A DNA stretch of 64,000 nt from Acidimicrobiales bacterium (lineage in GTDB: Bacteria; Actinomycetota; Acidimicrobiia; Acidimicrobiales; Bog-793): NCBI GenBank assembly GCA_052143575.1, contig JBKQSP010000033.1, positions 10,161 to 74,160 on the forward strand. Direction: 5' to 3'. A model generated the notes under the pieces. It saw only the letters and a list, made by a program, of their open reading frames with translations, was not told the origin of the DNA and did not search any database. Below, in pieces: positions 1 to 20,949 of the stretch (its first letter is position 1; each line of letters begins with the position of its first letter). The translations under genes were made by a program, and so were the position numbers.

Positions 1-2820
1 GCCCGTTTCGAGATCACCGGTGTGCCCGAGAGCCTGATGGCCGACTTCTCACAGCGCGTCGAGCAGATCGAGGCCTCCAAAGACGACCTGATCGAGGCCT
101 TCGTCGCCGGTCACGGCCGACGCCCGACGGGCGTTGAGATCGTGCGGCTTCGTCAGCAGGCGACCATCGCCACCCGACCCGCCAAGAACCATCGCAGCCT
201 GGCCGAGATGACCGAACACTGGCGCCGGCGCGCCGGCAACCTCGACGACGGTTGCGCCGAAGGAGCGTGGGTGGCATCGCTCCGGGACCGCAACGATCTC
301 CCCCTACTGGCGGCCGGCGACCTGGCGGAGCCGATTCTCGATGACGCCGCCCGGGCTGTTGTCGCGGCGGTGGCGGAGCGGCGTGCCACCTACCGGCGCG
401 ACAACCTCCTCGACGAGGCCCACCGTCTCCTCCACGGTGTCCGTTTCGCCAGCCCCGACGACCGCGTGACGGTCGCGGAACACATCACCGAACTCGCCAT
501 CGACGCCTCCTTGGCCCTCACCCCGCCGGTGTTGCACCACACACCCGAGCGGTATCTCCGCCCCGACGGATCGTCGCGGCTGGCGCCCCGCAGCCATCGC
601 ATCTACACGACCGAGACCTTGCTCGATGCCGAGGCCCGTCTCCTCGAGACCGCACAACGAAGCGGTGGACCGACGGTCGCGACCCCCACCGTCGCCGCCA
701 TCACCGAGCGCAACCTCCCCGGACGGAACCATCGCCTCTCGGTCGACCAGGCCGTCGCCGTGGAGAAGATCGCCACTTCCAACCGGTGGATCGACGTCTT
801 GGTGGGACCGGCCGGGACCGGCAAGTCCACCACCCTGGCGGGCCTCCGAGCGGTCTGGGAAGCCGAGCACGGGCCCGGGTCGGTCATCGGTCTGGCGCCG
901 TCCGCCGCAGCCGCCGAGGTCCTCGCCGGCGAGCTCGGCGTCGACACCGACAACACCGCCAAGTGGCTCACCGAGTATCGCAAGCTTCCCAAGCGCACCG
1001 CCGAACGCCAGCAAATCGCAGCCATCCTCGCCGGCCGCCCCCACTCGGCCAACGCCCAGCAGCTCCGTGAACGGATGCAGTCGTTGGACGCCGAGATCGC
1101 CCGATGGCGCCTGCAGCCCGGTCAGTTGTTGATCATCGACGAGGCCGGCCTGGCGGGGACCTTCGCCCTTGACGAGCTCGTCAGGGATGCAGTCGACGCC
1201 GGGGCGAAGGTCCTTCTTTCGGGCGACTGGGCTCAGCTGTCGGCCGTGGACGCCGGTGGGATGTTCGGGCTTGTCGCCCGCGACGACACCACCTCGGCGG
1301 CCGAGCTGGGAGAAGTCCATCGGTTCAGCTCGGAGTGGGAACGGACCGCCAGCATCGAGCTCCGCCACGGCAACGATCGCGCCCTCGATGCCTATGAGTC
1401 CCACGACCGGATCACCGGTGGCACCCGCGAGGAGCTGCTCGAAGCCGTCTACACAGCATGGAAGCACGACATCGACGCCGGCACGTCGAGTCTCATGATC
1501 GCCCCCGACACTGCCACAGTGAGCGAGCTGAACCGCCGTGCCCGCGCCGACCGTGTCGCCGCCGGAGACGTCGCCGAGCACGGCGTGAATGCCGCAGCCG
1601 GGCAGACGGTCGGCGTCGGCGACCAGGTCGTCACCCGTCGCAACGACCGCCGCCTCGCCACCGGAGCCGGCTGGGTCAAGAACGGCGACCGCTGGGTGGT
1701 CACTGCCACCGATGACGACGGCAGCATGACCGTGCGGCGCGCCGGCGGACACGGCGTCGTCGTTCTGCCGGCGCACTACGTGGCCGAACACGTCGAGCTT
1801 GCTTACGCGACCACGGCGCATCGTTCCCAAGGCCGCACCGTCGGGACCGCCCACGCGCTCGTGTCGCCGAGCACGACGCGAGAAGTCCTCTACGTCGCCG
1901 CCACCCGAGGGCGCGACGCGAATCGCCTCTACGTCGACACCGCCTACGACCCTGACCCGCAAACCAGCCACGATCACGCCGACGACCCTCGAACGACCCG
2001 AGAGGTGCTGGCCAGGGTGCTCGCCAACACGGGAGCTGAGTCATCCGCCCACGAGACTCTCCGCCGAGCACAGGGCGAGTTCGAGAGCTGGGCGAGCCTG
2101 CACGCCGAGTACCAGACCATCGCCCAGGCCGCCCAAGCCGAGCGCTGGAACACGCTTCTCGAGCACTCTGGGCTGACAGACCAGCAGCTCCAACAGGTTC
2201 GCTCAAGCGGTGCCCACGGGCCGCTCCTCACTGCGTTCCGAGACGCCGACTCCCGGGGCCTCGACCTCGAGTCCTCCCTGCCGCGGCTCGTCCGGACCCG
2301 CACCTTTGCTGACACCGACGACCCCGCCTCTGTCCTTCACGAACGTGTCGAACGGTGGATTCATGCCAGTGGTAGCCGCCGCCAGCCACGCAGCAACCTC
2401 ATTGCCGGGCTCATGCCAAGAGCTCTCGGAGTCACCGATCCCGATTTCGCCCGGGCTCTCAACGAACGCGACAAAGGGCTTGAGGGCCGCGCCCGACTGC
2501 TCGCCGAAAAGGCGGTGATCGATCGGCCCGGGTGGCTCCGTCAGCTCGGCTCCCCACCGGTCGATCCCAGGCTGCAAGCGCAGTGGGTGCGGGCCATCTC
2601 GACGGTCGCCGCCTACCGCGAACGCTGGAACATCACCGCCGCCGACCAAGCCCTCGAACCCCCGGGCCGGATTGATGATCTCGATCGGGCAAAGCAGCGC
2701 CAACGGGCGCTCGCTGCCGCCAAACAAGCACGTCGGCTGTCCTCGACCACGCCACGCCGTCACGACACGGGGCTGGCCGTCAGCGCGCCGACTGCGAGCC
2801 GCGAAGGGATCGACCTCTGA
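1..2820 (+). CDS. MobF/TrwC-TraA-type conjugative relaxase, C-terminal RecD-like helicase portion (5' partial)
   Basis: ORF 22..2820 stays open in frame back to nt 1 (ARFEITGVPESLMADFSQR...). It has a Walker A (VLVGPAGTGKST), a Walker B-like LLIIDEAGL, and the YATTAHRSQGRTV plus LYVAATRGR motifs typical of relaxase-linked helicases. Confidence 0.8.
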   Translation, partial: ARFEITGVPESLMADFSQRVEQIEASKDDLIEAFVAGHGRRPTGVEIVRLRQQATIATRPAKNHRSLAEMTEHWRRRAGNLDDGCAEGAWVASLRDRNDLPLLAAGDLAEPILDDAARAVVAAVAERRATYRRDNLLDEAHRLLHGVRFASPDDRVTVAEHITELAIDASLALTPPVLHHTPERYLRPDGSSRLAPRSHRIYTTETLLDAEARLLETAQRSGGPTVATPTVAAITERNLPGRNHRLSVDQAVAVEKIATSNRWIDVLVGPAGTGKSTTLAGLRAVWEAEHGPGSVIGLAPSAAAAEVLAGELGVDTDNTAKWLTEYRKLPKRTAERQQIAAILAGRPHSANAQQLRERMQSLDAEIARWRLQPGQLLIIDEAGLAGTFALDELVRDAVDAGAKVLLSGDWAQLSAVDAGGMFGLVARDDTTSAAELGEVHRFSSEWERTASIELRHGNDRALDAYESHDRITGGTREELLEAVYTAWKHDIDAGTSSLMIAPDTATVSELNRRARADRVAAGDVAEHGVNAAAGQTVGVGDQVVTRRNDRRLATGAGWVKNGDRWVVTATDDDGSMTVRRAGGHGVVVLPAHYVAEHVELAYATTAHRSQGRTVGTAHALVSPSTTREVLYVAATRGRDANRLYVDTAYDPDPQTSHDHADDPRTTREVLARVLANTGAESSAHETLRRAQGEFESWASLHAEYQTIAQAAQAERWNTLLEHSGLTDQQLQQVRSSGAHGPLLTAFRDADSRGLDLESSLPRLVRTRTFADTDDPASVLHERVERWIHASGSRRQPRSNLIAGLMPRALGVTDPDFARALNERDKGLEGRARLLAEKAVIDRPGWLRQLGSPPVDPRLQAQWVRAISTVAAYRERWNITAADQALEPPGRIDDLDRAKQRQRALAAAKQARRLSSTTPRRHDTGLAVSAPTASREGIDL

Positions 2821-2821
2821 C

Positions 2822-3316
2822 GTGAGCGACCGATACGGAGAGGAAAGACGACGACGGCGTCAGCCAGTTGGACACGGTGACGCAGTGAACCAGGTTGCGC
2901 CTTCATTGCCCCACGGGATCGATCCGCCACCATTGCACCCCGTCGCGGGCGCGGCCATCACGCCGGCGGTCGTCAGCATCGAAGGGCTGATCGAGGCCGC
3001 CGTCGAGCGGGCGATCCGCCGCGGTCTCGGGCCCTACCTGCACCGTCTCAGCGCCTGCGAGCCGGCCGTCTACACCGTCGCCCAGAGCGCCGAGGTCCTG
3101 CAGGTCTCCGAGGACACAATCGGCCGGATGGTGCGGCGAGGAGTACTTCCACGGGTCCCGCACGTCGGCGGCAAGGTGCTCATCCCCAAGCGTGCGCTCC
3201 ATCGTCTCATCGAGGGATCAGAGCTCGCTTACACCGCCCCGGCCGCCGAGGACGCCACGGCGGCGGAGGCCGGCGATCCCCGGAGCAGCCGGTCCATCAG
3301 GTCAGCCGCCTCGTGA
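2822..3316 (+). CDS. Excisionase-family / MerR-like helix-turn-helix DNA-binding protein (start uncertain)
   Basis: The ORF 2672..3316 frame contains VYTVAQSAEVLQVSEDTIGRMVRRGVLPRVPHVGGKVLIPKRAL, a typical excisionase HTH. A GTG at 2822 follows the relaxase stop directly. The 3' tail overlaps the integrase 3' end convergently. Confidence 0.55.
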   Translation: MSDRYGEERRRRRQPVGHGDAVNQVAPSLPHGIDPPPLHPVAGAAITPAVVSIEGLIEAAVERAIRRGLGPYLHRLSACEPAVYTVAQSAEVLQVSEDTIGRMVRRGVLPRVPHVGGKVLIPKRALHRLIEGSELAYTAPAAEDATAAEAGDPRSSRSIRSAAS

Positions 3317-4485
3317 TCCGATCCGGGGATGTAGTGACGGTACGTGCCCAAGATGTTGGCTTCGGTGCAGCCGAGGCGCTCGGCCACGACTGAGATGGGG
3401 ACGCCGGCCATGAGCATCTGGCTCGCCGCCGTGTGCCGGAGGTCATGGAGCCGCATGCGGGCGACGCCGGCCCGGGCGCTGTAGCGCAGCCAGGCGTGCG
3501 ATGGCCACGGAAGGCTCCAGTGCGAGACGCCGTCGTCGGAGAAGACGAACGACTCTGGCCCGAAGGGCACTCCTATCTTCCTAGCGCGTTCCTCCGCCCG
3601 GACGGCGTGGGCGGCCAGCATCTGCTTGGTGTCCGGCCCGAGGGTGACCGGGTACGAGCGGTCCGCCTTCGTTCCCTTTTCGACCGTCCCACACTCGGCC
3701 TCGGCGATCGAGCGCGAGAAGGTGATGGTTGCCCGCTCGAGGTCGACGTCACCCCAGCGCAGGGCAACGAGCGTGCCGCGGCGGGCACCGACGGTCGCAG
3801 CCAGCTGGATGAACGTGGCGAACTCCGGAGTCGCGACATCCTGGACGGCGCGTACGTCGGTCATCGACGGGACGTCGAGCTGGCGGGACTTCACCCGGGG
3901 AGGGTCCGCCGCCAGCGCTGGATTGGCGCTCACCAATCGCTTTCTGACTGCCCAGTTGAACATCGTCCGGATCTGGCCGTGACAGCGAAGGATGACCGAC
4001 GGTGACAGTCCGGTCTCCTGTTCGAGGCTCCGGTAGAGACGGTCGAGGTGCACGCCACTCACCTGCTCGGCATGCCAAGGGCCGATGACGGGAAGGATGT
4101 GGTGGCGAAAGTTGTCAGCCACCGTCTTGGCGGTTTTCGGAGACCAGCCGATCCAGTCCCCGCTTCGGGGATCCTGCCGAGGACGGTTTGCCTCCTGCCA
4201 GGCGGCGGCGATCTCGGCGACCGATGGGCCCCGACCAGGCGTGTCCCGAGCGTCGGGATAGCGTCCCGACTCGACGGCCGCAATCAGCTCGGCGAGGCGA
4301 GCATCGGCGAGCTTGGCTCCCGCTCTGTTGTTGGCGGCGGGGACGGTCTCGTAGATGGTGCGGCGCCGGCCCGTAAGCGGATCGAAGCCGTTGGCAACCG
4401 CCAACCGCCAAGCGCCTTCCTTGAACCGTTTGTGACCTCGCATGGTCCCACTATGTTGGCGGGATTGTTGGCGGAGGTCAAGCAC
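3229..4485 (-). CDS. Tyrosine recombinase / phage-type integrase
   Basis: The 418-aa ORF has an N-terminal SAM-like domain. Its C-terminal catalytic region carries ARRGTLVALRW, HDLRHTAAS and LGTYRHY (the R..H-x-x-R..Y signature). It is adjacent to a tRNA 3' end. Confidence 0.9.
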   Translation of the reverse strand: MLDLRQQSRQHSGTMRGHKRFKEGAWRLAVANGFDPLTGRRRTIYETVPAANNRAGAKLADARLAELIAAVESGRYPDARDTPGRGPSVAEIAAAWQEANRPRQDPRSGDWIGWSPKTAKTVADNFRHHILPVIGPWHAEQVSGVHLDRLYRSLEQETGLSPSVILRCHGQIRTMFNWAVRKRLVSANPALAADPPRVKSRQLDVPSMTDVRAVQDVATPEFATFIQLAATVGARRGTLVALRWGDVDLERATITFSRSIAEAECGTVEKGTKADRSYPVTLGPDTKQMLAAHAVRAEERARKIGVPFGPESFVFSDDGVSHWSLPWPSHAWLRYSARAGVARMRLHDLRHTAASQMLMAGVPISVVAERLGCTEANILGTYRHYIPGSDHEAADLMDRLLRGSPASAAVASSAAGAV

Positions 4486-4532
4486 CTCTGCGGAGGATTT
4501 CGTGAAAGACTATCTGAGCTGGACTTATATGA

Positions 4533-4606
4533 GCACCCCCAACGGGATTCGAACCCGTGCTACCACCTTGAAAGGGTGGCGTCCTAGGCCGCTAGACGAT
4601 GGGGGC
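4533..4606 (-). tRNA. tRNA-Glu (anticodon UUC)
   Basis: The reverse complement reads GCCCCCATCGTCTAGCGGCCTAGGACGCCACCCTTTCAAGGTGGTAGCACGGGTTCGAATCCCGTTGGGGGTG. It folds as a cloverleaf with anticodon loop CTTTCAA (TTC) and T-loop GGTTCGAATCC. No CCA is encoded. Confidence 0.9.
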
Positions 4607-11343: not shown

Positions 11344-12294
11344 TCAGGCCGACCCGTCCGGATCGCTCACGAGCCGCAAGAAGAGGTCCTCCAGCCGCTC
11401 ATGGCCAGCCCGGAGCGTCCCGAGAGCGAGTCCCCGCTCCGCCATCCAGGTGTTGAGCGACGCCAGCAAAGCAGGCGTGAGGGCGCCCGGGACGACGTAG
11501 TCGCCGGGTCCCCCCTCGGTCACTTCCACGCCGAGCGCCGCCGAGAGAGCAGCGACGTCGAGCCCGGCGGCGGCCGAGAAACGCACGGCGTCAGTTCCCG
11601 AGGCGATTTCTCCCGGAGCGCCGGCGACGACGACGCGACCGCGATTGATGATGACGACACGGTCGGCGAGTCGCTCCACCTCGTCGAGCTCGTGGCTCGT
11701 GAGCACGACACAGGTGCCCTCGTCTCGCACGGCGGCGATGACGCCTCGCACGGCGAGGCGCCCAGCCGGGTCGACGCCCGACGTTGGCTCGTCGAGGAAG
11801 ACGACCTGCGGGCGCCCGAGCAGGGCGAGGGCGAGGGCGAGGCGCTGCTGTTCGCCACCGGACAATCGCTTGAAGGGCGTTCTTGCGACGCCACCGAGAC
11901 CGAGCAGTTCGATCAGCTCCGATCCGTCCCGGGGCTGGTCGTAGTAGGAGGCGAACAGGTGCACCGCTCGTTCCGCGTTCATCATCGGGTAGATGCCCGG
12001 TTGCTGCAGCATGACGCCGATGCGGCTCACGAGGGCGCGGTGGTCGCCCGCCGGGTCGAGTCCGAGGACCCGGACCTTTCCGGAGCCGGGCCGGCGGTAG
12101 CCCTCGAGAGTCTCGACGGTGGTGGTCTTCCCGGCGCCGTTCGGCCCCAGGATCGCCAGCACCTCGCCCGAACTGGCCGTGAACGATATGCCGTCCACGG
12201 CGACCCGCTCTCCGTAGGCCACGCGGAGATCCTCAACGACGACAGCAGGAGCGGCGGTCCCGCCGGGCGGGCCCGGAGCCGTCTCGAAGCCCAC
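11344..12294 (-). CDS. ABC transporter ATP-binding protein (DrrA-like)
   Basis: It has a Walker A (GPNGAGKTT), the ABC signature LSGGEQQR and a Walker B (VVFLDEPTSGVD). The GTG at 12294 lies just downstream of the response-regulator stop at 12297. Confidence 0.85.
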   Translation of the reverse strand: MGFETAPGPPGGTAAPAVVVEDLRVAYGERVAVDGISFTASSGEVLAILGPNGAGKTTTVETLEGYRRPGSGKVRVLGLDPAGDHRALVSRIGVMLQQPGIYPMMNAERAVHLFASYYDQPRDGSELIELLGLGGVARTPFKRLSGGEQQRLALALALLGRPQVVFLDEPTSGVDPAGRLAVRGVIAAVRDEGTCVVLTSHELDEVERLADRVVIINRGRVVVAGAPGEIASGTDAVRFSAAAGLDVAALSAALGVEVTEGGPGDYVVPGALTPALLASLNTWMAERGLALGTLRAGHERLEDLFLRLVSDPDGSA

Positions 12295-12296
12295 GC

Positions 12297-13190
12297 TCAG
12301 CGCCGCGGCGCCTCGAAGCGATAGCCGACGCCGCGGATCGTCGTGATGAGGACCGGATGAGCGGGGTCCGCCTCGATGCGGGAGCGCAGCCGCTTGATGT
12401 GGACGTCGAGCGTCTTCGTGTCGCCGACGTAGTCGAGGCCCCACACCCGGTCGATGAGCGTGTCACGCGTGACGACCCTGCCGGCGTTGGCGAGGAGGAT
12501 CTCGAGGAGCTCGAACTCCTTGAGGGGCAGCTTCACCTCCTGCTCTCGCACCATGCATTCGTGGCGAGAGACGTCGAGGTGCACGCCGCCGACTTCGAGG
12601 ACCTCCTCGAGGTCACGGCGCAGCGGTCGGCGCTCGGACGCCCCCGAGCGCTGCCGCTCTGGCGCCACGGCCGGAACCGGAGCAACCGTCGCCGTCGCCT
12701 CCACCAGCGCCGCCGTCGGATTGATCGCCACGACCGCCGCCAGTGACCCGTCGCCGTTCTCGCTCGCGGTCCGGGAGGGGTGGTTGATGTTGCTGAGCGG
12801 GATCTGCCTCGACCCGCGACGCAAGACGGCTCGCATGCGGGAGACGAGCTCACGGAGCCGGTACGGCTTGGCGACATAGTCGTCGGCACCGACCTCGAGG
12901 CCGACGACGGTGTCGAGCTCGGTGGACTTTGCCGTCACCATGATGATGGGGACGTCGGAGTGGGCGCGGATCGTGCGGCAGACGTCGATGCCGGACATAC
13001 GCGGCAGCATGACGTCGAGGAGCACGAGGTCGGTTGTGGCTGCGTCGAAGCGCTCGAGCGCTTCGACACCGTCTCGGGCGACGGTGATGGCGAAGCCCTC
13101 ACGCTCGAGTCCTACGACGAGGGCGTCCACGAAGGACTCGGCATCCTCCACGAGGAGGACCCGAGTGGGTGCTGCGATGTCGATGGTCAC
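12297..13190 (-). CDS. OmpR/PhoB-family response regulator (RegX3/PhoP-like) with an unusually long inter-domain linker
   Basis: The receiver domain reads RVLLVEDA...LLDVMLPRMSGID...ADDYVAKP. The winged-helix output domain reads LPLKEFELLEILLANAGRVVTRDTLIDRVWG...TIRGVGYRF. About 65 Ala/Pro/Val-rich residues separate the two domains. Confidence 0.9.
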   Translation of the reverse strand: MTIDIAAPTRVLLVEDAESFVDALVVGLEREGFAITVARDGVEALERFDAATTDLVLLDVMLPRMSGIDVCRTIRAHSDVPIIMVTAKSTELDTVVGLEVGADDYVAKPYRLRELVSRMRAVLRRGSRQIPLSNINHPSRTASENGDGSLAAVVAINPTAALVEATATVAPVPAVAPERQRSGASERRPLRRDLEEVLEVGGVHLDVSRHECMVREQEVKLPLKEFELLEILLANAGRVVTRDTLIDRVWGLDYVGDTKTLDVHIKRLRSRIEADPAHPVLITTIRGVGYRFEAPRR

Positions 13191-14443
13191 ACGTCGCTCC
13201 TCGGCTGGAGGGGCAGGCGGAGCGTGAAGGTCGAGCCTTCGCCCTCCCGGGACTCCACCTGCACGCTGCCACGATGGTTGGCGGCTACGTGGCGCACGAT
13301 AGCCAGTCCGAGTCCCGTCCCGCCTGTCGAGCGACTGCGGCCCTGGTCGACGCGGTAGAAACGCTCGAAGATGCGTTCCAGATCACGCGCCGGTATGCCG
13401 ACGCCGGCGTCGGCCACCTCGATGAGTACCTCGTCGCCGGCCAACCGGCCGGTGCAGCTGACGTCGGAGTTCTCGTAGGAGAACTTCACGGCGTTCTCGA
13501 GCAGGTTGTAGACGGCCGAGGTGAGCTGGCGACGGTCGCCGAGCACGGCCACGGGCGGATCCGGCTCGTCGAGAACGACCTGCACGTTGAGCTGCTCCGC
13601 CGCCGCCCTCACGCGCTCGGCCGCTTCGGCCATGACGAGGTTGACGAGTACCGGCTCGCGAGGCGGTGACTCCTCGTTCTCGATCCGGGAAAGATCGAGC
13701 AGGTCGTCGATGACCCGGCTGATGCGAAACGCCTCCGTGTGGATGCGGTGCGCCAGTCGTTGGGCGACTTGCGGCTCCGTTTCGGCGAGGAGGGTCTCGG
13801 CGAGGAGGCCGACGGCGCCCATGGGCGTCTTCAGCTCGTGGCTGACGTTGGCGACGAAGTCGCGACGGATGCCCTCGAGCCGCCGCCGCTCAGACACGTC
13901 GTCGATCACGGCCATCACGCCGAGGACCCGAGTGCCGTTGTCGATGCTCTCGGTTCGCACGACGAGTGTCCGCCGCGGCGGCCCGTAGAGCTCGAGCGTG
14001 CGTTCCTCCGTGGCGCCGATGGGCGTCGACTGCAGCAGCTCCTCGACGGCTTGGGCGGCGAGAGCGTCTCCGTGCCGACCGCTCATGAGCATGAGGGCGT
14101 TGTGGTTCGAGAAGACCGTCTCGCCGTGCTCGTCACGGATCAGGACGGCCTGCGGGAGGGCGTCGAGCGCTCGGCGGATACGGATCGTCTCCGAGCTGGC
14201 CTCGTGCACGGCTGCCACCGCGTTGTCCGTGGCCCGTTCCAGGAGGGCGAGGCTTTCCTCCAGACTCTTCGGATCGCGGGAGGGAGGGTCGGCGCCGAGA
14301 CGGGAGACGAGTGCCCCGATCCTCTGGCGCATCGCCCGTCCGCCCCGCCGATCACCGAGGGAGAAGGCGGCGCCGATCGCCACGATCACGACGACAGCGG
14401 TGACCACGATCTCGAGCACAGATACGTGCATCACGGTCGCCAC
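13187..14443 (-). CDS. Sensor histidine kinase (SenX3/PhoR-like) with a PAS-like region
   Basis: It has the H-box FVANVSHELKTP, the N-box LLENAVKFS and a G-box GTGLGLAIV. A single N-terminal TM segment is present. It overlaps the regulator gene by 4 nt. Confidence 0.9.
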   Translation of the reverse strand: MATVMHVSVLEIVVTAVVVIVAIGAAFSLGDRRGGRAMRQRIGALVSRLGADPPSRDPKSLEESLALLERATDNAVAAVHEASSETIRIRRALDALPQAVLIRDEHGETVFSNHNALMLMSGRHGDALAAQAVEELLQSTPIGATEERTLELYGPPRRTLVVRTESIDNGTRVLGVMAVIDDVSERRRLEGIRRDFVANVSHELKTPMGAVGLLAETLLAETEPQVAQRLAHRIHTEAFRISRVIDDLLDLSRIENEESPPREPVLVNLVMAEAAERVRAAAEQLNVQVVLDEPDPPVAVLGDRRQLTSAVYNLLENAVKFSYENSDVSCTGRLAGDEVLIEVADAGVGIPARDLERIFERFYRVDQGRSRSTGGTGLGLAIVRHVAANHRGSVQVESREGEGSTFTLRLPLQPRSDV

Positions 14444-14601
14444 GCCTCCAGCTTGGCAGCCCGCTCCGCCTTGCCCGTTTGCAGAAATATAAGAAAATCA
14501 CTTGAGAACAAAAGAAAACCACTGATATCCTGATGAGCAGCATCGGTCGATCCGGCCCGTCGTGAGTCCAAGCGCCTGAGCGCTCAGCCGGGAGGTCGAT
14601 C

Positions 14602-14913
14602 GTGACACCACTCATCCACCGGTGGCTGCTGGCGGGAACGCCAATCGTCCCCTTCAACCCCAACTCGGGCGCCGTCCCCGGCTCCGGTCCGCTCGAGACC
14701 CTGACGAACGGCATCGGTTGGTGGGCGCTCGTCGCTTCGCTCGTCGGGCTCGTGCTCGGCGCCGCCGCCTGGGCACTCGGGAGCCACACGAACAACTACC
14801 AGTACTCGAGCGCCGGGCGGCGGGCGGTCGTGGTCTCCGCCATGGCCGCCCTCGTGATCGGGGCGGCACCGATCGTCATCAACTTCCTGTTCAGCCAAGG
14901 ACGGCTGTTCTGA
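14602..14913 (+). CDS. Small two-TM membrane protein, VirB2/TrbC pilin-like (DUF6112-like)
   Basis: A GGGAGG RBS lies 8 nt upstream of the GTG start. The 103-aa protein has a leader followed by two hydrophobic helices (WWALVASLVGLVLGAAAWALG and AVVVSAMAALVIGAAPIVINFLF). It is the first gene of the T4SS-like cluster. Confidence 0.55.
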   Translation: MTPLIHRWLLAGTPIVPFNPNSGAVPGSGPLETLTNGIGWWALVASLVGLVLGAAAWALGSHTNNYQYSSAGRRAVVVSAMAALVIGAAPIVINFLFSQGRLF

Positions 14914-14966
14914 GCCCGTCCGGCGCCGGCGGCGGTCCCGGGTCCCTCGCCGCCGCCCCGGCGCTG

Positions 14967-16199
14967 TTGTCGCCGGCCCGCCGAGCGGTCAGTTCCGGGC
15001 TCCTTCCGAGCCCGTCGAACCTCTTGAAGCAGCTGGCGACCGATCTCGTCTCGGGTTTCTTCAAGGCGTTCGCACACTGGGTGGCGAGCGGCACGACGTG
15101 GCTGCTGCATGAGGCATGGCACGGCATGTCGGCCACGACCGAGCCGGTGCTGACGGGCGCCGCCTTCAGCTCCGAGTACCAGGTCATGATCCTCATCGGG
15201 CTAGGCGGTGTGGCGCCCATGCTCGGGCTCGCCGTCATTCAGGCCATCGCCCGACAGGATCCGAGTGGTCTCCTGCGGACCGCCCTCCTGCGCCTCCCGA
15301 CGGCGCTCCTGCTCACCGGTGTCGTGATCGAGCTCGTGTCGCTCGGCCTCAGGTTCACCGACGAGGCGAGCGTCGCCTTGCTGACGGCGGGCGCAGGCGC
15401 CGCCGGGCGGGCCTTCGGCAACATCGAGGCTGCCGTCGGGCCGGTGGCGCCGGCGGCGTACGGATTCGGCCAGCTGCTCCTTGTCCTCGTCGTAGCGCTC
15501 GTCGGGTTCATGCTCTGGGTCGAGCTGGCGGTGCGATCCGCCGCTGTCGCCGTGGCGACACTGTTTCTCCCGCTCGCCCTCGCCGGGCTCGTCTGGCCGG
15601 CGACCTCGCACTGGGCGCGGCGCCTCGGAGAGACGCTTGCCGGCCTCGTCCTCATGAAGCTCGTCATGGCCGCCGTGCTCGCACTTGCCGGCGGTGCCCT
15701 CGCGGCGGACGCCGGCGGCATCTCGAGCCTCGTGGAGGGCGTCGCCCTGCTCGGCCTGACGGCGTTCTCTCCCTTCGTCCTGTTCCGGTTGATCCCCATC
15801 GTCGAGGGCGGTGCCGTCGGGCACCTCGAGGGGGCTCGCCCGGCGCAGGCAGTGAAGGACCAGGCGTCGTCTCTTGCCGCCGACGGCGCCCACTGGGTGA
15901 CGGCAGCTCTCAGCGTCGCCAAGCCGGCCTCGAAGGGCACCTCCGGCCAGGAGGGAGTGGCCAGCCTACCTGGCGCCGGCGGCAGCGTCTTCGCTGCCGG
16001 GGCAGCGAGCCGTGGGCGTGCAGCTGCCCGGCCGTCGTCCTCGCCGGGTGCCACCGGAGGCGACCCGGGCAGGGGCGAAGCGCCAGCGGGCCGCACGGGC
16101 GAGCCGGCGGCGCCCGGGAGCGGGAGCCAACTCGGCGAGGCGGGCTGGGTGCAGCACATCGTCCGTCGCTCCGAGAACCGCAGCCGTGGCCCCTCCTGA
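14967..16199 (+). CDS. Polytopic membrane protein, TrbL/VirB6-like, with a Gly/Ala/Pro-rich C-terminal tail (start uncertain)
   Basis: It uses the frame of ORF 14622..16199 downstream of the preceding stop. It has at least 6 predicted TM helices, for example LLLVLVVALVGFMLWVELAV and LAGLVLMKLVMAAVLALAGGAL. Start candidates are the TTG at 14967 and the ATG at 15126. Confidence 0.5.
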   Translation: MSPARRAVSSGLLPSPSNLLKQLATDLVSGFFKAFAHWVASGTTWLLHEAWHGMSATTEPVLTGAAFSSEYQVMILIGLGGVAPMLGLAVIQAIARQDPSGLLRTALLRLPTALLLTGVVIELVSLGLRFTDEASVALLTAGAGAAGRAFGNIEAAVGPVAPAAYGFGQLLLVLVVALVGFMLWVELAVRSAAVAVATLFLPLALAGLVWPATSHWARRLGETLAGLVLMKLVMAAVLALAGGALAADAGGISSLVEGVALLGLTAFSPFVLFRLIPIVEGGAVGHLEGARPAQAVKDQASSLAADGAHWVTAALSVAKPASKGTSGQEGVASLPGAGGSVFAAGAASRGRAAARPSSSPGATGGDPGRGEAPAGRTGEPAAPGSGSQLGEAGWVQHIVRRSENRSRGPS

Positions 16200-17667
16200 G
16201 CCGTCGCCGGCCCGCTACCGTCTCGGGCCCCGCAGCACCCGCGGGCTCGTCGCCGGCTGGCGGGCGGGCCAGATCGCCTGTGTGGCGATCGGCCTCGTGC
16301 TCGCCGTGGGCTTCCTCCGCTCCATCGGCGGACCCCCCGGAGGGTTGCTCGCCCTTGCCGCCGCCGGCGGTGGAGTGGCCATGGCGACGTGGCCGGTGGG
16401 CGGGCGGACACTCGAGCAGTGGGCGCCGACGCTGGCGAGCTTCGGCATCCGGGCTGCGGCTGATGCTCGGCACCGACCCTGGCAGGGCGCCAATCGCCGA
16501 CCTTGCGGAGCCCTCAGCAGCATGGCCTTGCTGGAGCTGCCGGAACCAGGGGAGTGGGAGCCGGCCTGGCGGGAAGGTCTCGAGACCCTCGCAGAGCGCG
16601 CTCGGGCGTCCCGTGCCGGCCGACGCCCCGCCAGGACGCCCGTCTCGGCTACGGGCATCGGTGTTCTCGCAGACGCCACGTCGCACGCCTGGACGTCCGT
16701 GCTGCCCGTCGGAGGCGCGGGTTTTGCCCTCCTCAGCGAGGGCGATCGAGTCGAGAGAATCGCAGCCTGGTCGGGCGTGCTGGCGGCCATGGCTCGCGAC
16801 ACCGCAGGTCTGCACCGGCTGCAATGGCTGTCGGCCACCTACCCCGCCTGGCTCGAGGATGCCTTGCCGGGCGGCGGCAGCGGCCTGCCGGGCGAGCACT
16901 ATGCCCGCCTCCTCGAGGAAGCATCGCCCGAGCTGTGGGCGCACGAGGTGTGCGTCGCCGTCAGCGTGCGCCGGAGCACCCCCCGCGGGAGCGGCGTCGA
17001 CGGTGCCGCTGCCCTCTTGCGCGAGCAGCTCTCGACCCTCGGCGATCGCCTTCGAGGGGCCGGCCTCGCCCCCGGGCCACCGCTCTCGCCCCTGGCCCTC
17101 GCCTCTCTCGTACGGCGGAGCTTCGAGATGGCGCCGATCGGCACGCCGGCTCCGTGGCCCTGGCCGGTCGGGATCGACGACGGCTGGGGGCACCTGCGCA
17201 CGGACGCCGCCTGGCACGCCACCTACTGGGTGGCGGAATGGCCGCGCTGCGAGGTCGGTGGGGGTTTCCTGTTGCCGCTGCTGCTCGAGCCGCGCTTGCG
17301 ACGCGTCGTGTCGGTGACGATGGCACCGGTGGCGGTCGTGGCGGCGGTGCGGCGAGCCGAGCGGGACCGGACCGAGGGCACCGCAGATGCCGAGATGCGG
17401 CGCCGGCACGGCTTCGCGATGACGGCGAGGGCGGCGCAGGAGCAGGAAAGCCGCCGGCAGCGAGAAGCCGAGCTGGCTGAGGGGCACGCCGGCTACCGCT
17501 ACTCGGGCTATGTCCGACTGACGGAGGCGGATCAGGACGCGCTCGAGCGTTCCTGTGGCCGGCTCGAGCAGTCGGCCGCACTGGCTCAGCTCGAACTCCG
17601 CCGCCTCTACGGCGCCCAGGAGGAGGGGTACTGCTGCACGCTGCCGACCGGTCGGGGGTGCCGGTGA
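16186..17667 (+). CDS. Membrane-anchored protein resembling the N-terminal half of VirB4/TcpF-type ATPases (SCO6880-family-like)
   Basis: The GTG at 16186 overlaps the upstream stop. The N-terminus reads RYRLGPRSTRGLVAGWRAGQIACVAIGLVLAVGF followed by a second TM segment, then a large soluble domain. The C-terminus reads YGAQEEGYCCTLPTGRG. Confidence 0.5.
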   Translation: MAPPEPSPARYRLGPRSTRGLVAGWRAGQIACVAIGLVLAVGFLRSIGGPPGGLLALAAAGGGVAMATWPVGGRTLEQWAPTLASFGIRAAADARHRPWQGANRRPCGALSSMALLELPEPGEWEPAWREGLETLAERARASRAGRRPARTPVSATGIGVLADATSHAWTSVLPVGGAGFALLSEGDRVERIAAWSGVLAAMARDTAGLHRLQWLSATYPAWLEDALPGGGSGLPGEHYARLLEEASPELWAHEVCVAVSVRRSTPRGSGVDGAAALLREQLSTLGDRLRGAGLAPGPPLSPLALASLVRRSFEMAPIGTPAPWPWPVGIDDGWGHLRTDAAWHATYWVAEWPRCEVGGGFLLPLLLEPRLRRVVSVTMAPVAVVAAVRRAERDRTEGTADAEMRRRHGFAMTARAAQEQESRRQREAELAEGHAGYRYSGYVRLTEADQDALERSCGRLEQSAALAQLELRRLYGAQEEGYCCTLPTGRGCR

Positions 17668-18965
17668 GCGCCCTCCGGCTGCCCGCCCACGAGGCGACGA
17701 CGGCGCAGCTGTGCGCCGCTTATCCGTTCGTGGCGTCGCGCCCGCTCGGGGTGGGTCGGGTGCTCGTCGGGCGCGATCTCGCCGGCGGGGCCTTCGTTCA
17801 CGACCCGTTCTCGCTGTACGCGCTCGGTGTGCTCACGAACCCGAACATGACCATCCTCGGGCAGATCGGCCGCGGCAAGAGCGCTCTCGTCAAGAGCTAC
17901 CTGTACCGGCAGGCCGCCTTCGGGCGCCAGATCGCCGTGCTCGACCCGAAGGGCGAATACGGGAGCCTGGCGAGAGCCCTTCAGGCCGAGCCCATCACCC
18001 TCTCGCCCGCTGGCGGGGTGAGGATCAACCCGCTCGACGAGAGCGGCTTGTTCCGAGGCAGCGATGCGGGCGTCCGCCACCGTCGTCTCGTCCTGCTCGG
18101 TGCGCTCGCCGAGGCGACGCTGCATCGGCGCCTTTCGCCCCGCGAGCACACCGCCCTCGAGCTCGCCCTCGACGAGGCGGTCGCCCTCTCGCTCGTGCCG
18201 ACTCTCAACTCCGTCGTGGACGCCGTGCTCCGCCCTCGTCCCGACGCCGGTGTCCGGCTCGGCATCACGGCGAGGTCGCTTGTCGAGGACGGCCGCGACG
18301 TCGGCTTGGAGCTCCGGCGGCTGGTGGGCGGCGACCTTGCCGGCATGTTCGACGGCGAGACGAGCCCGGCGCTCGTCGCCCGGCGTCCGGCCGGCTCGCC
18401 AGAGGACGGGGCAGGAGCTCCTTGCGCCGTCGTCCCCCCGCTCGTCGTGGATCTCTCGGAGGTGTATCACTCCGAGGCCCTGCCGGCCCTCATGGTCTGT
18501 GCCGCAGCCTGGCTGCAGGCCATGACCGGGGCGGAGGACCGGCAGACGTTTGTTGTCGTGGACGAGGCCTGGGCGGTCCTGAGCGAACTGGCCGTCGGCC
18601 GCTTCCTGCGTTCGTCGTGGAAGCTGGCACGCGCCCGTGGCGTCGCCAACGTCGCCGTCTGTCACCGGGCGAGCGACCTGAGCGCCAGCGGAGCCGCCGG
18701 CAGCGAGGAAGCCCGACTCGCTGAGGGCTTGCTGGCCGACTCCGAGACGGTCGTCTGCTACGCCCAGCCGGCGTCGGAGCTCCCTTCCCTCGCAGCCCTG
18801 CTCGGTTGCTCACCTGCGTCGCTCTCCCTCTTGCCGAGCCTCCCCCGCGGGGTCGCCCTCTGGCGGGTGGCAGGCCAGTCGTACCTGGTCGAGCACCTGC
18901 TGGCCGCGCACGAGCACGGCCTCGTCGACACCGACGCTCGCCTCCGCAGTGCGACAGCCTCCTAA
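17658..18965 (+). CDS. P-loop ATPase, VirB4 C-terminal-domain-like
   Basis: It has a Walker A (ILGQIGRGKSALVKSY) and a Walker B (TFVVVDEAWAVL). Its start overlaps the upstream stop. Confidence 0.75.
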   Translation: MPVSALRLPAHEATTAQLCAAYPFVASRPLGVGRVLVGRDLAGGAFVHDPFSLYALGVLTNPNMTILGQIGRGKSALVKSYLYRQAAFGRQIAVLDPKGEYGSLARALQAEPITLSPAGGVRINPLDESGLFRGSDAGVRHRRLVLLGALAEATLHRRLSPREHTALELALDEAVALSLVPTLNSVVDAVLRPRPDAGVRLGITARSLVEDGRDVGLELRRLVGGDLAGMFDGETSPALVARRPAGSPEDGAGAPCAVVPPLVVDLSEVYHSEALPALMVCAAAWLQAMTGAEDRQTFVVVDEAWAVLSELAVGRFLRSSWKLARARGVANVAVCHRASDLSASGAAGSEEARLAEGLLADSETVVCYAQPASELPSLAALLGCSPASLSLLPSLPRGVALWRVAGQSYLVEHLLAAHEHGLVDTDARLRSATAS

Positions 18966-20562
18966 GCGTCGTCTCTCCGGCAACCGCTCGCCCCTCGCCG
19001 CCCGCCGCGCGCCGGGAGGTGGTCGTCGCCAGCAGCCCCCCGGCCTCATGCCCGACGTGCTGGTCGGCCTCGCCGTCGTCGTCGTGGCCGTTGTGGCCGA
19101 GCTCACCCGCCTGCGGGCCGACGTCGTCGCTCATCGTCACGAGCTCGATCTCGCCGCCCGTGCCGGTGCCGCCCTGGCGGCGGCGACGCTGCTCGGTGGC
19201 CCCCTCGTCCTGGCAGGGCACCGCCGGAGGGGGCGTCCGAGGCGGAGCCGCCATCGCCCTTGGTCATCGCCGTCGCCCGAGGCCGGTTGGGCGAGCCGCC
19301 GCCAACTGCGACCGCTCGAGGTGACAGCGCCGCCGGGTGATCGCATCGTGCTCGGATCCCATGGGCGCTGCCTGCTCGCCGCCGAGGGGGGCCAGTCGGT
19401 GCTCGTCGTGGGTCCGACCCAGTCCGGAAAGACGAGTGGCCTCGCCATCCCGGCGATCCGCGAGTGGCGGGGTGCCGTCGTGGCGACGAGCGTGAAGTCG
19501 GATCTGGTCCGCGAGACCATCGAGCAGCGGCGCGCCCTCGGGCAGGTCCAGCTCTACGACCCCACCGGAGCGTCCGGTTTCTTGGCGACGGGGTGGTCGC
19601 CCCTGTCGGCGGCTGCCACCTGGACGGGCGCCAAGCGCCTCGCCTCCGCCCTCTGCTCGGTGGCGAGGGCGGACGGGGGCATGGACGACGCCGCCTTCTG
19701 GTACGCCTCGGCGGAGAAGCTGCTGGCGCCGCTCCTACTGGCGGCGGCTTCGGCCGGAGCCGGCATGGCCGACGTCGTGCGGTGGATCGATGACGAGGAG
19801 CTGCACGAGCCCCTCCTCGCCCTCGAGCTGGCCGGCGTGCCCGACGCTCTCCGGGCGGCCCGCACGAGCTTCGGGCGGGAGGAGCGCCAGCGGAGCTCGG
19901 TCTTCGCAACGGCCGAGACGATCGTCGCCGGCTTCGGCGATCCCGTCGTAGCGGCTTCTGCCCACGGGCCCGGCATCGATCCGCCCGCCCTTGTCAAGGG
20001 TTCGGCGGACACGCTGTACTGCTGTGCGCCCGCCCGCGAGCAGGACCGCCTCCGGCCCGTGTTCGTGGCCCTGCTGCGCCAGGTGCTCGACGCAGCCTTC
20101 GAGCGTTCCGGACGGCTCGGCCGACCGCTCGATCCGCCCCTGCTCGTCGTGCTCGACGAGGCGGCCAACATCGCCCCGCTCGCCGATCTCGACACCATCG
20201 TCTCCACGGCCGCCGGCCACGGGATCGCACTCGTGACGGTGTGGCAGGACTTCGCCCAGATCGAGGCGCGCTACGGGAGGCGATGGCCGACGATCGTCAA
20301 CAACCATCGAGCCAAGGTGCTGTGCCCGGGGAGCGCCGATCCCCTCACGCTCGACCACATGAGCTCGCTCATCGGTGAGGACGAGCGAACGGAGCGCTCG
20401 ACGACCTTCTCCGACGACGGCCGGTGGAGCAGCACGGAGGCCGCGTCCGTCCGCCGGGTGGCTCCGAGCGCCGTCCTGCGCACACTGTCGGCCGGCGAAG
20501 CGGTCGTCGTCTACGGCTCGCTGCCGCCGGCTCGCGTGGCCCTGCGCCCCTACTACGGGTGA
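18949..20562 (+). CDS. Type IV coupling protein (VirD4/TraG/TraD-like, TraM-recognition-domain type)
   Basis: It has two N-terminal TM helices, a Walker A (LVVGPTQSGKTSGLAIPAI) and a Walker B (LLVVLDEAANIAPL), followed by VWQDFAQIEARYG. An alternative ATG start is at 19048. Confidence 0.75.
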   Translation: MRQPPKRRLSGNRSPLAARRAPGGGRRQQPPGLMPDVLVGLAVVVVAVVAELTRLRADVVAHRHELDLAARAGAALAAATLLGGPLVLAGHRRRGRPRRSRHRPWSSPSPEAGWASRRQLRPLEVTAPPGDRIVLGSHGRCLLAAEGGQSVLVVGPTQSGKTSGLAIPAIREWRGAVVATSVKSDLVRETIEQRRALGQVQLYDPTGASGFLATGWSPLSAAATWTGAKRLASALCSVARADGGMDDAAFWYASAEKLLAPLLLAAASAGAGMADVVRWIDDEELHEPLLALELAGVPDALRAARTSFGREERQRSSVFATAETIVAGFGDPVVAASAHGPGIDPPALVKGSADTLYCCAPAREQDRLRPVFVALLRQVLDAAFERSGRLGRPLDPPLLVVLDEAANIAPLADLDTIVSTAAGHGIALVTVWQDFAQIEARYGRRWPTIVNNHRAKVLCPGSADPLTLDHMSSLIGEDERTERSTTFSDDGRWSSTEAASVRRVAPSAVLRTLSAGEAVVVYGSLPPARVALRPYYG

Positions 20563-20676: not shown

Positions 20677-20949
20677 GTTCTCGCTCGTGAACGACCCCGG
20701 CTGTACGCCACGATCTTTCGCCGGCGTGACGTGCGCGGCCAGTTCAGCGGCGAGCCCCTCGACGACGCCACCCTCGCCAAGGTGCTCTTGGCGGCGCACG
20801 CAGCGCCGAGCGTCGGGCTCTCGCAGCCGTGGGACTTCGTCGTCGTGACGGACGAGTCGACGCCGGACCTCGAGCGAGCCGGCTGGCGCGCCCGCTTGGA
20901 GCTCTCCGCCGTGTGCCACCGCGAGCGGTGGGGGAACCGGGACGGCTGA
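20677..20949 (+). pseudogene. Truncated BluB/nitroreductase-family fragment
   Basis: The frame reads ...LYATIFRRRDVRGQFSGEPLDDATLAKVLLAAHAAPSVGLSQPWDFVVVTDES and then diverges and stops. Only about 80 of the expected ~210 residues are present, and there is no convincing start codon. Confidence 0.45.

Follow-up and report, generated by a model that had tools for sequence, protein, structure and literature searches.

Introduction

Conjugation machines normally travel on the mobile elements that use them. Here we analyse a block of five genes (g1 to g5) related to type IV secretion systems (T4SSs), located at positions 14602-20562 of a 64,000-nucleotide stretch of DNA, hereafter the window, from an Acidimicrobiales bacterium (GenBank assembly GCA_052143575.1, contig JBKQSP010000033.1, positions 10,161 to 74,160). 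Judged by its sequence, the block very probably encodes a T4SS-derived translocon of the cytoplasmic membrane equipped with two intact ATPases. An earlier reading of the same DNA, made without database searches and called here the original prediction, had described a minimal T4SS-like module and supposed that loci of this kind lacked functional characterisation. The latter does not hold, as the Streptomyces cmdABCDEF genes have already been studied (PMC2782261).

In Streptomyces coelicolor, cmdABCDEF (SCO4126-4131) are chromosomal, co-transcribed genes that are conserved across species and homologous to the transfer genes of SLP2 (Xie, Zeng and Qin 2009; PMC2782261). CmdB is a VirB4-like ATPase, and CmdC and CmdD resemble SCO6880 and SCO6881, respectively; SCO6871-6884 form a cluster of the same species that is paralogous to cmd (PMC2782261). 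Deletion of cmd results in sporulation and chromosome-segregation defects and in the over-production of actinorhodin (PMC2782261).

The minimal T4SSs of Firmicutes (pCF10 Prg/Pcf, ICEBs1 and pCW3 Tcp; MPF-FATA/FA) contain VirB4, a VirB6-like protein, a VirB3-like protein (PrgI) and VirD4, and have no outer-membrane core. Helicobacter ComB and archaeal Ced are host-owned, relaxase-less derivatives of conjugation systems that handle DNA, as the Acidimicrobiales block is host-owned and relaxase-less. ComB and Ced lack a VirD4-type coupling protein, whereas the block retains one. The searched passages of a 2025 T4SS review do not mention the T4SS type described here, and no paper tying Acidimicrobiia to VirB4 or to T4SSs was found in the indexed literature.

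Organization of the five-gene block

The closest public relatives of the window, the GC content of which ranges from 0.64 to 0.745, are metagenome-assembled genomes of Acidimicrobiales from soil, peat and wetland. The block consists of overlapping or closely spaced genes on the plus strand, with a coding-type GC content at third codon positions (GC3) of 0.81-0.87:

14602-14913, plus strand: g1, 103 residues, hydrophobic helices at residues 42-60 and 75-93, DUF6112
14967-16199, plus strand: g2, 410 residues, six hydrophobic segments, low-complexity disordered Gly/Ala/Pro tail from about residue 290
16186-17667, plus strand: g3, 493 residues, membrane hairpin at the N terminus, SCO6880 family
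17658-18965, plus strand: g4, 435 residues, P-loop ATPase, motifs GQIGRGKSALVKSY and VVVDEAWAVL
18949-20562, plus strand: g5, 537 residues, VirD4/TraG-type coupling ATPase, N-terminal membrane anchor, motifs GPTQSGKTSG and VVLDEAANIAPL

The gene calls agree with the original prediction, which had listed five co-directional genes with overlapping or close boundaries, the quoted motifs of g4 and g5, a length of 493 residues for g3 and two membrane segments in a g1 of 103 residues. The g2 gene starts at a TTG codon (14967), the sole canonical in-frame start codon downstream of g1, from which it is separated by 53 nt. All other neighbours overlap, by 14 nt (g2/g3), 10 nt (g3/g4) and 17 nt (g4/g5), which suggests that g2 to g5 may be translationally coupled.

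The GC content of the block had been called visually similar to that of its surroundings. It is in fact higher (0.73-0.74, compared with 0.68-0.70 in the flanks), yet a foreign signature was ruled out, because core genes of haem biosynthesis at 38-42 kb reach the same value.

Proteins encoded by the block

Profile searches linked both ATPases to T4SS families. The match is strong for g5, which hits T4SS-DNA_transf (PF02534) with an E-value of 4.3e-29 (102 bits, cut-off 20.1), as well as TraG-D_C (PF12696, E 3.2e-20) and TrwB_AAD_bind (PF10412, E 3.1e-12), both above their cut-offs. As had been predicted, g5 is the VirD4/TraG-type coupling protein of the T4SS superfamily. The g4 protein matches AAA_10 (E 7.9e-9) and VirB4_CagE, and aligns only to the C-terminal ATPase part (about 410-750) of the VirB4 models CD1110, Mbov_0397, TraC and TcpF, in keeping with its expected resemblance to the C-terminal half of VirB4.

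The g3 protein belongs to the SCO6880 family (NCBIfam NF042935, E 1.3e-58, 199 bits, cut-off 60). A profile sequence search against the PDB found no match for g3, and fold search alone was productive. Using an AlphaFold2 model built from 45 homologues (pLDDT 75), the top 14 PDB entries were all R388 TrwK/VirB4, with E-values from 2.7e-11 to 2.2e-8 over about 360-410 aligned columns; the likeness of g3 to the N-terminal half of VirB4, previously proposed from the sequence, is thereby substantiated at the level of the predicted fold. A g3 profile search of 1.84 billion representative proteins retrieved 2873 family clusters. In P0357, a protein of 928 residues and hence VirB4-sized, a g3-like half is joined to a g4-like half that is 49% identical to g4. 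P0357 could be a genuine g3-g4 fusion or the result of gene-calling read-through. Because g4 matches the C-terminal half of VirB4, g3 has the predicted fold of TrwK/VirB4 and an apparent 928-residue fusion exists, g3 and g4 are interpreted as a split VirB4, g3 being the predicted N-terminal domain and g4 the predicted C-terminal motor half. The VirB4-family ATPase of the T4SS superfamily is accordingly present in the block, divided between two genes. One plasmid homologue of g3 has a sub-threshold match to PrgI, and another homologue is named ‘PrgI family protein’ by NCBI; the hairpin at the N terminus of g3 probably resembles VirB3/PrgI.

The Pfam EccE model (PF11203) also scores g3 above its cut-off (29 bits compared with 23.7). 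A type VII secretion (ESX)/EccE identity was ruled out, as VirB4 accounts for each of the 14 best fold matches and no ESX genes lie nearby. No EccE chain occurs among the 50 fold matches listed for g3. SCO6880-family proteins such as P0001 and P0108 likewise score above the EccE cut-off, and one homologue is labelled ‘type VII ESX translocon EccE’ by JGI. Such labels on SCO6880-family proteins are probably misleading, because the predicted fold is that of the VirB4 N-terminal domain.

The g1 protein, a putative pilin-like protein in the original prediction, matches DUF6112 (PF19607, E 2.9e-7, 30.6 bits, cut-off 25). Its orthologues are 59-86% identical, with ratios of nonsynonymous to synonymous substitution (dN/dS) of 0.10-0.30, and a DUF6112 gene also opens operons of the same T4SS type on plasmids.

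Pfam searches of g2 and three of its orthologues found no match. The protein scores 28.9 bits (E 5.8e-7) against the SCO6881_fam model (NF047967), the cut-off of which is 325 bits, and is 27% identical (E 3e-16) to an Iamia plasmid protein annotated as ‘type IV secretion system protein’. Weak, sub-threshold matches to TrbL_4 and to TrbL were observed in 18 and 6 of 37 homologues, respectively. The structure model is poor (pLDDT 65, pTM 0.37) and gave no significant match in the fold search, in which TrwI/VirB6 appeared at E-values of about 6-8 only. The original prediction of at least six transmembrane segments followed by a Gly/Ala/Pro tail was correct, but the VirB6/TrbL link is weak, and g2 may be regarded as a candidate VirB6/TrbL-like channel subunit.

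Comparison with cmd and with minimal T4SSs of Firmicutes

Like Streptomyces cmd, the block is chromosomal, probably co-transcribed, conserved across species and homologous to plasmid conjugation genes, and g3 belongs to the family of the CmdC-like SCO6880 (199 bits against 60). In contrast, g2 falls far under the cut-off of the model for the CmdD-like SCO6881 (28.9 bits against 325). In addition, cmd comprises six genes instead of five, and its description is silent on a VirD4-type coupling protein (PMC2782261). The hosts also differ, cmd belonging to a sporulating mycelial genus and the block to Acidimicrobiales. The block, moreover, invariably adjoins a Pho-type two-component system. The likeness to the Cmd proteins rests on membership of the SCO6880 family and on the published resemblance of CmdC to SCO6880 and of CmdD to SCO6881. 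We take the block to be a further example of the chromosomal T4SS-like operons typified by cmd and SCO6880.

The block has a corresponding set of components to the minimal T4SSs of Firmicutes, with g2 as the candidate VirB6-like protein and the g3 hairpin as the putative VirB3-like part, and similarly lacks an outer-membrane core. The CD1110 and TcpF models of VirB4 are matched by g4, although at scores far under their equivalog cut-offs. Unlike the block, the Firmicutes systems have a VirB4 made of one polypeptide and possess a relaxase, a hydrolase and a protein resembling VirB8.

Conservation at one chromosomal site

The same operon occupies the same site in loci L001-L007 and L010, over a range of g3 identity that extends down to 40%. 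In four species-level relatives (g3 70-74% identical), the genes for ClpS, CtaA and CtaB are followed, further along, by the regulator, the kinase, g1-g5, the nitroreductase, PhoU and E1 dehydrogenase. In three distant Acidimicrobiales contigs (g3 at 50, 46 and 40%), the five genes diverge from the same kinase/regulator pair, which is adjacent and divergent in all seven related loci that cover this stretch. In L006, the most distant locus, a rve transposase of the insertion-sequence (IS) type (11707-12849) is inserted between the g3 and g4 orthologues and PhoU is not adjacent. Despite the transposase, all five genes of L006 are intact, as they are in every orthologous locus.

The dN/dS ratios of the block range from 0.10 to 0.27 in close pairs and do not exceed 0.42 in distant ones, as observed for the nearby CtaA, ABC ATPase and methyltransferase genes; the ratios are rough, as dS is near saturation. 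The Walker A and Walker B motifs of g4 and g5 are invariant in six chromosomal orthologues. By these comparisons, the operon is chromosomally fixed, vertically inherited and under purifying selection, and appears to be an old, order-wide trait of Acidimicrobiales, not one peculiar to a single genome.

Among the window open reading frames (ORFs) scanned, no relaxase, wall hydrolase, integrase or tRNA was found inside or adjoining the block, and no flanking repeats were detected beyond GC-rich chance matches. Neither the window nor the seven related loci have a relaxase in or beside the block, the nearest one being located 12 kb away in a separate tRNA-Glu element. Self-transmissible elements encode a relaxase alongside their pore genes, and have an integrase or attachment-site repeats and a variable location; neither trait is seen in the block. 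It also lacks the hydrolase that monoderm actinobacterial split-VirB4 T4SSs typically carry in their transfer operon. The scans agree with the original prediction, which had noted neither a relaxase nor a lytic enzyme and no adjacent integrase, tRNA or repeats. The original prediction had also raised the possibility that related genomes would reveal a remnant of a larger integrative and conjugative element (ICE). Instead, in these genomes the block stands by itself, outside any ICE and at an unchanged position in the chromosome.

Plasmid relatives and ancestry

A tblastn search of plasmids with g4 returned 127 records, all below 60% identity. Most are from Streptomyces, Rhodococcus and Arthrobacter, and two are from Iamia, a genus of Acidimicrobiia. 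In the Iamia sp. SCSIO 61187 plasmid NZ_CP050950, the gene order is ParA-like, DUF6112, hypothetical protein, T4SS membrane protein, SCO6880, ATPase, helix-turn-helix (HTH) protein and coupling protein; a MobF relaxase and a D-Ala-D-Ala carboxypeptidase are additionally present. A common core order is found in plasmids of Streptomyces (NZ_CP104318 and NZ_CP108010), Citricoccus and Arthrobacter. Five of the six plasmid examples have a hydrolase, which is of the C40, NlpC/P60 or CHAP type in Streptomyces and Arthrobacter; no hydrolase is annotated in the 19-kb stretch examined of the Citricoccus plasmid.

Actinobacterial split-VirB4 plasmids, and likewise the SLP2 transfer genes, share with the block, in the same order, the DUF6112, candidate VirB6-like and SCO6880/PrgI-family proteins, the ATPase corresponding to the C-terminal half of VirB4 (38-42% identical to g4) and the coupling protein. 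In contrast to the block, these plasmids additionally have a wall hydrolase (C40, NlpC/P60, CHAP or D-Ala-D-Ala carboxypeptidase), a protein of 225-290 residues between the first two genes, and ParA-like and HTH genes. They also usually encode a MobF relaxase, whereas the chromosomal block has none and is not part of a mobile element.

In the g4 tree, a single label change accounts for the eight chromosomal copies (support 74/69). Together with the two Iamia plasmids, which are the nearest plasmid branch, these copies form a clade (support 94/98). Actinobacterial plasmids, including those of Iamia, are the likely ancestors of the chromosomal block. In the simplest scenario, a conjugative core of the Acidimicrobiia type would have been captured once, long ago; relaxase, wall hydrolase and accessory genes would then have been lost and the cytoplasmic-membrane translocon alone kept.

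Flanking genes, control region and expression

The following features adjoin the block:

12297-13190, minus strand: response regulator of the Pho/SenX3-RegX3 type (Pfam Response_reg/Trans_reg_C)
13187-14443, minus strand: histidine kinase of the Pho/SenX3-RegX3 type (Pfam HisKA/HATPase_c)
14444-14601, no strand: divergent control region between the kinase operon and the g1-g5 operon, 158 nt, with a promoter and an A/T-rich repeat
20677-20949, plus strand: remnant of a bluB-like nitroreductase gene, 90 residues, 372 nt (124 codons) lost in frame

An ABC transporter and the two-component pair, divergent from g1-g5, form the left flank; the bluB-like remnant, PhoU, DinB and E1 dehydrogenase form the right flank. 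Other genes of the window also serve housekeeping functions (cytochrome oxidase, haem synthesis, Lnt, riboflavin synthesis and HtrA), and the block is embedded among housekeeping genes on both sides, as first described. The response regulator (297 residues) aligns over its full length at 79-82% identity in L001, L002 and L004, indicating that its long inter-domain linker is conserved.

In L001 and L002, an intact bluB-like gene of about 215 residues is found at the position of the 90-residue remnant. The remnant is a normal gene of the neighbourhood that has lost an internal stretch, by a deletion that could be real or an assembly artefact, and is not an insertion scar. A recent insertion between the Pho genes and phoU was ruled out, since the same layout is found down to 40% g3 identity and relatives have an undamaged bluB-like gene.

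A promoter scan of the control region revealed a sigma-70-like promoter, TTGAGA-18-TATCCT (14502-14531, plus strand), which is the sole site in the region, compared with 0.0 expected. In the five closest genomes, both promoter elements (-35 and -10) are kept, as are the 5' leader and the ribosome-binding site. An A/T-rich repeat, AAGAAAAYCAC, occurs twice within 14478-14540 (AAGAAAATCAC ... AAGAAAACCAC), with 20 nt from start to start. The repeat overlaps the promoter -35, and the five closest genomes retain its first copy. It may represent a response-regulator site, or simply part of the promoter. In the terminator scan of the region, a single site at chance level was found, inside g2.

In a wetland metatranscriptome, patchy low-depth contigs of at least 99% identity map to g2, g3, g4 and g5, and one of them spans the g3/g4 junction. 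Depth on g2-g5 is well below that on the kinase/regulator genes and phoU.

The tRNA-Glu element

A MobF relaxase, an integrase and a tRNA-Glu gene are located about 10 kb to the left of the block, from which they are separated by twelve housekeeping genes. They belong to an integrated element, one end of which is visible in the window:

1-4606, no strand: visible end of the integrated tRNA-Glu element (relaxase, HTH_17 gene, integrase and tRNA)
1-2820, plus strand: MobF/TrwC relaxase (Pfam), truncated by the window start, 1185 residues in full
2885-3316, plus strand: HTH_17 excisionase-like gene (Pfam)
3229-4443, minus strand: tyrosine integrase (Pfam), 404 residues from the start chosen, abutting the 3' end of tRNA-Glu
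4533-4606, minus strand: tRNA-Glu (ARAGORN)

Beyond the window, the element continues with a gene of 105 residues, an RHS-repeat protein of 1991 residues, a gene of 239 residues, transposase fragments, two recombinases, a Replic_Relax protein and IS genes. The RHS-repeat protein, a putative toxin, ends in a C-terminal Amidase_6 domain, and the 239-residue gene downstream may encode its immunity protein. No VirB4 or coupling protein was found in the element over the at least 24 kb followed. No second copy of the tRNA 3' end, which would mark the far attachment site, occurs in the sequence examined. Aligned from end to end, the relaxase shares 33% identity (E 6e-116) with its MobF counterpart on the Iamia plasmid, which bears a T4SS of the type described here.

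The element was observed at loci L010, L011, L012 and L017, and was compared over 6-11 kb in three host backgrounds, among which the chromosomal flanks are 70-88% identical overall and the element 99.6-100%. When the window is compared with L010, identity per 500 nt amounts to 69-84% in the chromosomal flank and rises to 100.0% at the tRNA, beyond which it stays there for more than 11 kb. In L012, the contig name of which we take from its form to be in the style of a long-read assembler, flank identity is 69-83% with the window and 80-92% with L010, compared with 99.6-100% for the element. The presence of a near-identical element on divergent flanks points to its very recent transfer between host species. 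L010 also carries the g1-g5 module, which is present in at least two of the three element hosts.

The original prediction had suggested that the mobilizable element at 1-4.5 kb might use the module as its pore. Support for this is circumstantial, and consists of a relaxase of the plasmid type, the lack of pore genes in at least 24 kb and recent spread. A trans-mobilisation link between the tRNA-Glu element, which is MobF-only, and the chromosomal module would be new and fits these observations, the element being a candidate cargo only.

Function of the translocon

We assign a probability of about 45% to the explanation that the block is a fixed, inherited operon derived from a plasmid T4SS, reduced to the translocon and serving relaxase-only elements in trans. 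According to this model, g5 would recruit the substrate at the membrane and deliver it to the motor formed by g3 and g4 and to the candidate channel, g2; together these would drive it across the cytoplasmic membrane with ATP. The substrate would be a relaxase-bound DNA strand supplied in trans, and is taken as such because a coupling protein with intact motifs is retained in every orthologue. The leading candidate user would be a relaxase-only integrative mobilizable element (IME), for instance the tRNA-Glu element of the window. The identity of the cargo, a relaxase-bound strand of a relaxase-only element mobilised in trans, is a tentative assignment to which we give somewhat under even odds. 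Trans-mobilisation is ranked first because the coupling protein is kept everywhere and a relaxase-only element of a compatible type is spreading among hosts. Actinobacteria have many relaxase-only elements and few T4SSs (Guglielmini et al. 2011; PMC3158045). By extension, it is possible, if on balance rather unlikely, that Acidimicrobiales own a communal mating pore, i.e., an order-wide, host-encoded minimal T4SS, possibly switched by the Pho-type system, which relaxase-only elements borrow to move between species.

Several points weigh against service to mobile elements. Monoderm conjugation systems normally require a wall hydrolase, and no peptidoglycan hydrolase was found in the operon or among the window ORFs scanned. 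The lack of a hydrolase weighs most heavily against any cell-to-cell role, although such an enzyme could be encoded at another place in the genome. It is also evolutionarily odd that a host should keep a pore for mobile elements over order-level timescales. The channel would depend on g2, the weakest of the five assignments. Expression of g2-g5 is weak, and DNA carry-over could account for the metatranscriptome signal. As for the tRNA-Glu element, a pore of its own may lie in the unseen part, and chimeric metagenome assembly of short-read contigs at a conserved tRNA could be part of the reason why the sequence is identical where the flanks diverge, although the L012 copy, by its contig name, may come from a long-read assembly. 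Moreover, the transfer of an SLP2-derived plasmid is unaffected by cmd deletion (PMC2782261).

That result belongs to the sole functional data available for this kind of operon, and the segregation and sporulation defects of the Streptomyces cmd mutant (PMC2782261) favour a cmd-like housekeeping role, in which the block would act in chromosome segregation, DNA movement at division or envelope organisation, with no transfer between cells. Vertical inheritance throughout the order, at one site and under purifying selection, suits such a host function, as does an operon that has neither hydrolase nor relaxase. However, to our knowledge neither sporulation nor mycelial growth occurs in Acidimicrobiales, and the Streptomyces phenotype is therefore not directly transferable. 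The link to Cmd passes through SCO6880 family membership and the published SCO6880/SCO6881 statement, and the kept coupling protein suggests a recruited substrate. We regard a cmd-like role as unlikely, although it is the alternative that survives best.

An improbable alternative is that the host releases, takes up or exchanges chromosomal DNA under the control of the adjoining Pho-type two-component system, for instance during phosphate limitation. No feature of the locus is more stable than its divergent linkage to the kinase/regulator pair, which is kept in L006, where that to PhoU is not, and the shared control region measures just 158 nt and has a conserved promoter. ComB, a relaxase-independent uptake system derived from a T4SS, and archaeal Ced are precedents. 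The regulator site is a candidate only, however, since the conserved A/T-rich repeat overlaps the -35 and may be a mere promoter part, and uptake systems of the ComB type have no coupling protein, whereas the block keeps one.

Slightly less probable again is protein secretion, in which effectors recruited by the coupling protein would be exported across the membrane. The coupling protein is intact, and relaxase-less T4SS clusters have been classed as putative protein exporters by Guglielmini et al. (PMC3158045). In contrast, no candidate effector or chaperone gene is linked to the block in any locus examined, and wall-spanning and surface parts are absent. We know of no minimal monoderm T4SS of this type that secretes proteins, which also counts against this alternative.

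A decaying, functionless remnant of an integrated conjugative element, as might be imagined from the missing relaxase, hydrolase and accessory genes, the slightly raised GC content and the damaged bluB-like neighbour, is very improbable, being contradicted by five genes intact at a fixed site in every orthologous locus down to 40% g3 identity, by purifying selection (dN/dS 0.10-0.42) and by invariant Walker motifs, while core haem-biosynthesis genes share the GC content and relatives possess a complete bluB-like gene.

Implications

The order-wide maintenance, at one site and under selection, of a pared-down T4SS implies that the host itself gains from it. In the only studied relative, Streptomyces cmd, the link to chromosome segregation is unexplained. 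If the Acidimicrobiales operon handles the DNA of its own host, it would represent a second, independent domestication of the cmd type, in a non-mycelial lineage. If, in contrast, it is a pore for relaxase-only elements, it would provide a testable answer to the question of how mobilizable elements of Actinobacteria transfer when few T4SSs are detected. Such modules could escape standard searches with VirB4 profiles, because their VirB4 is divided between two genes. If the operon serves relaxase-only elements, mobilome surveys of soil and peat communities may count too few split-VirB4 systems; and if it is a communal pore, modules missed in this way could help to explain the excess of relaxase-only elements over recognisable T4SSs in Actinobacteria.

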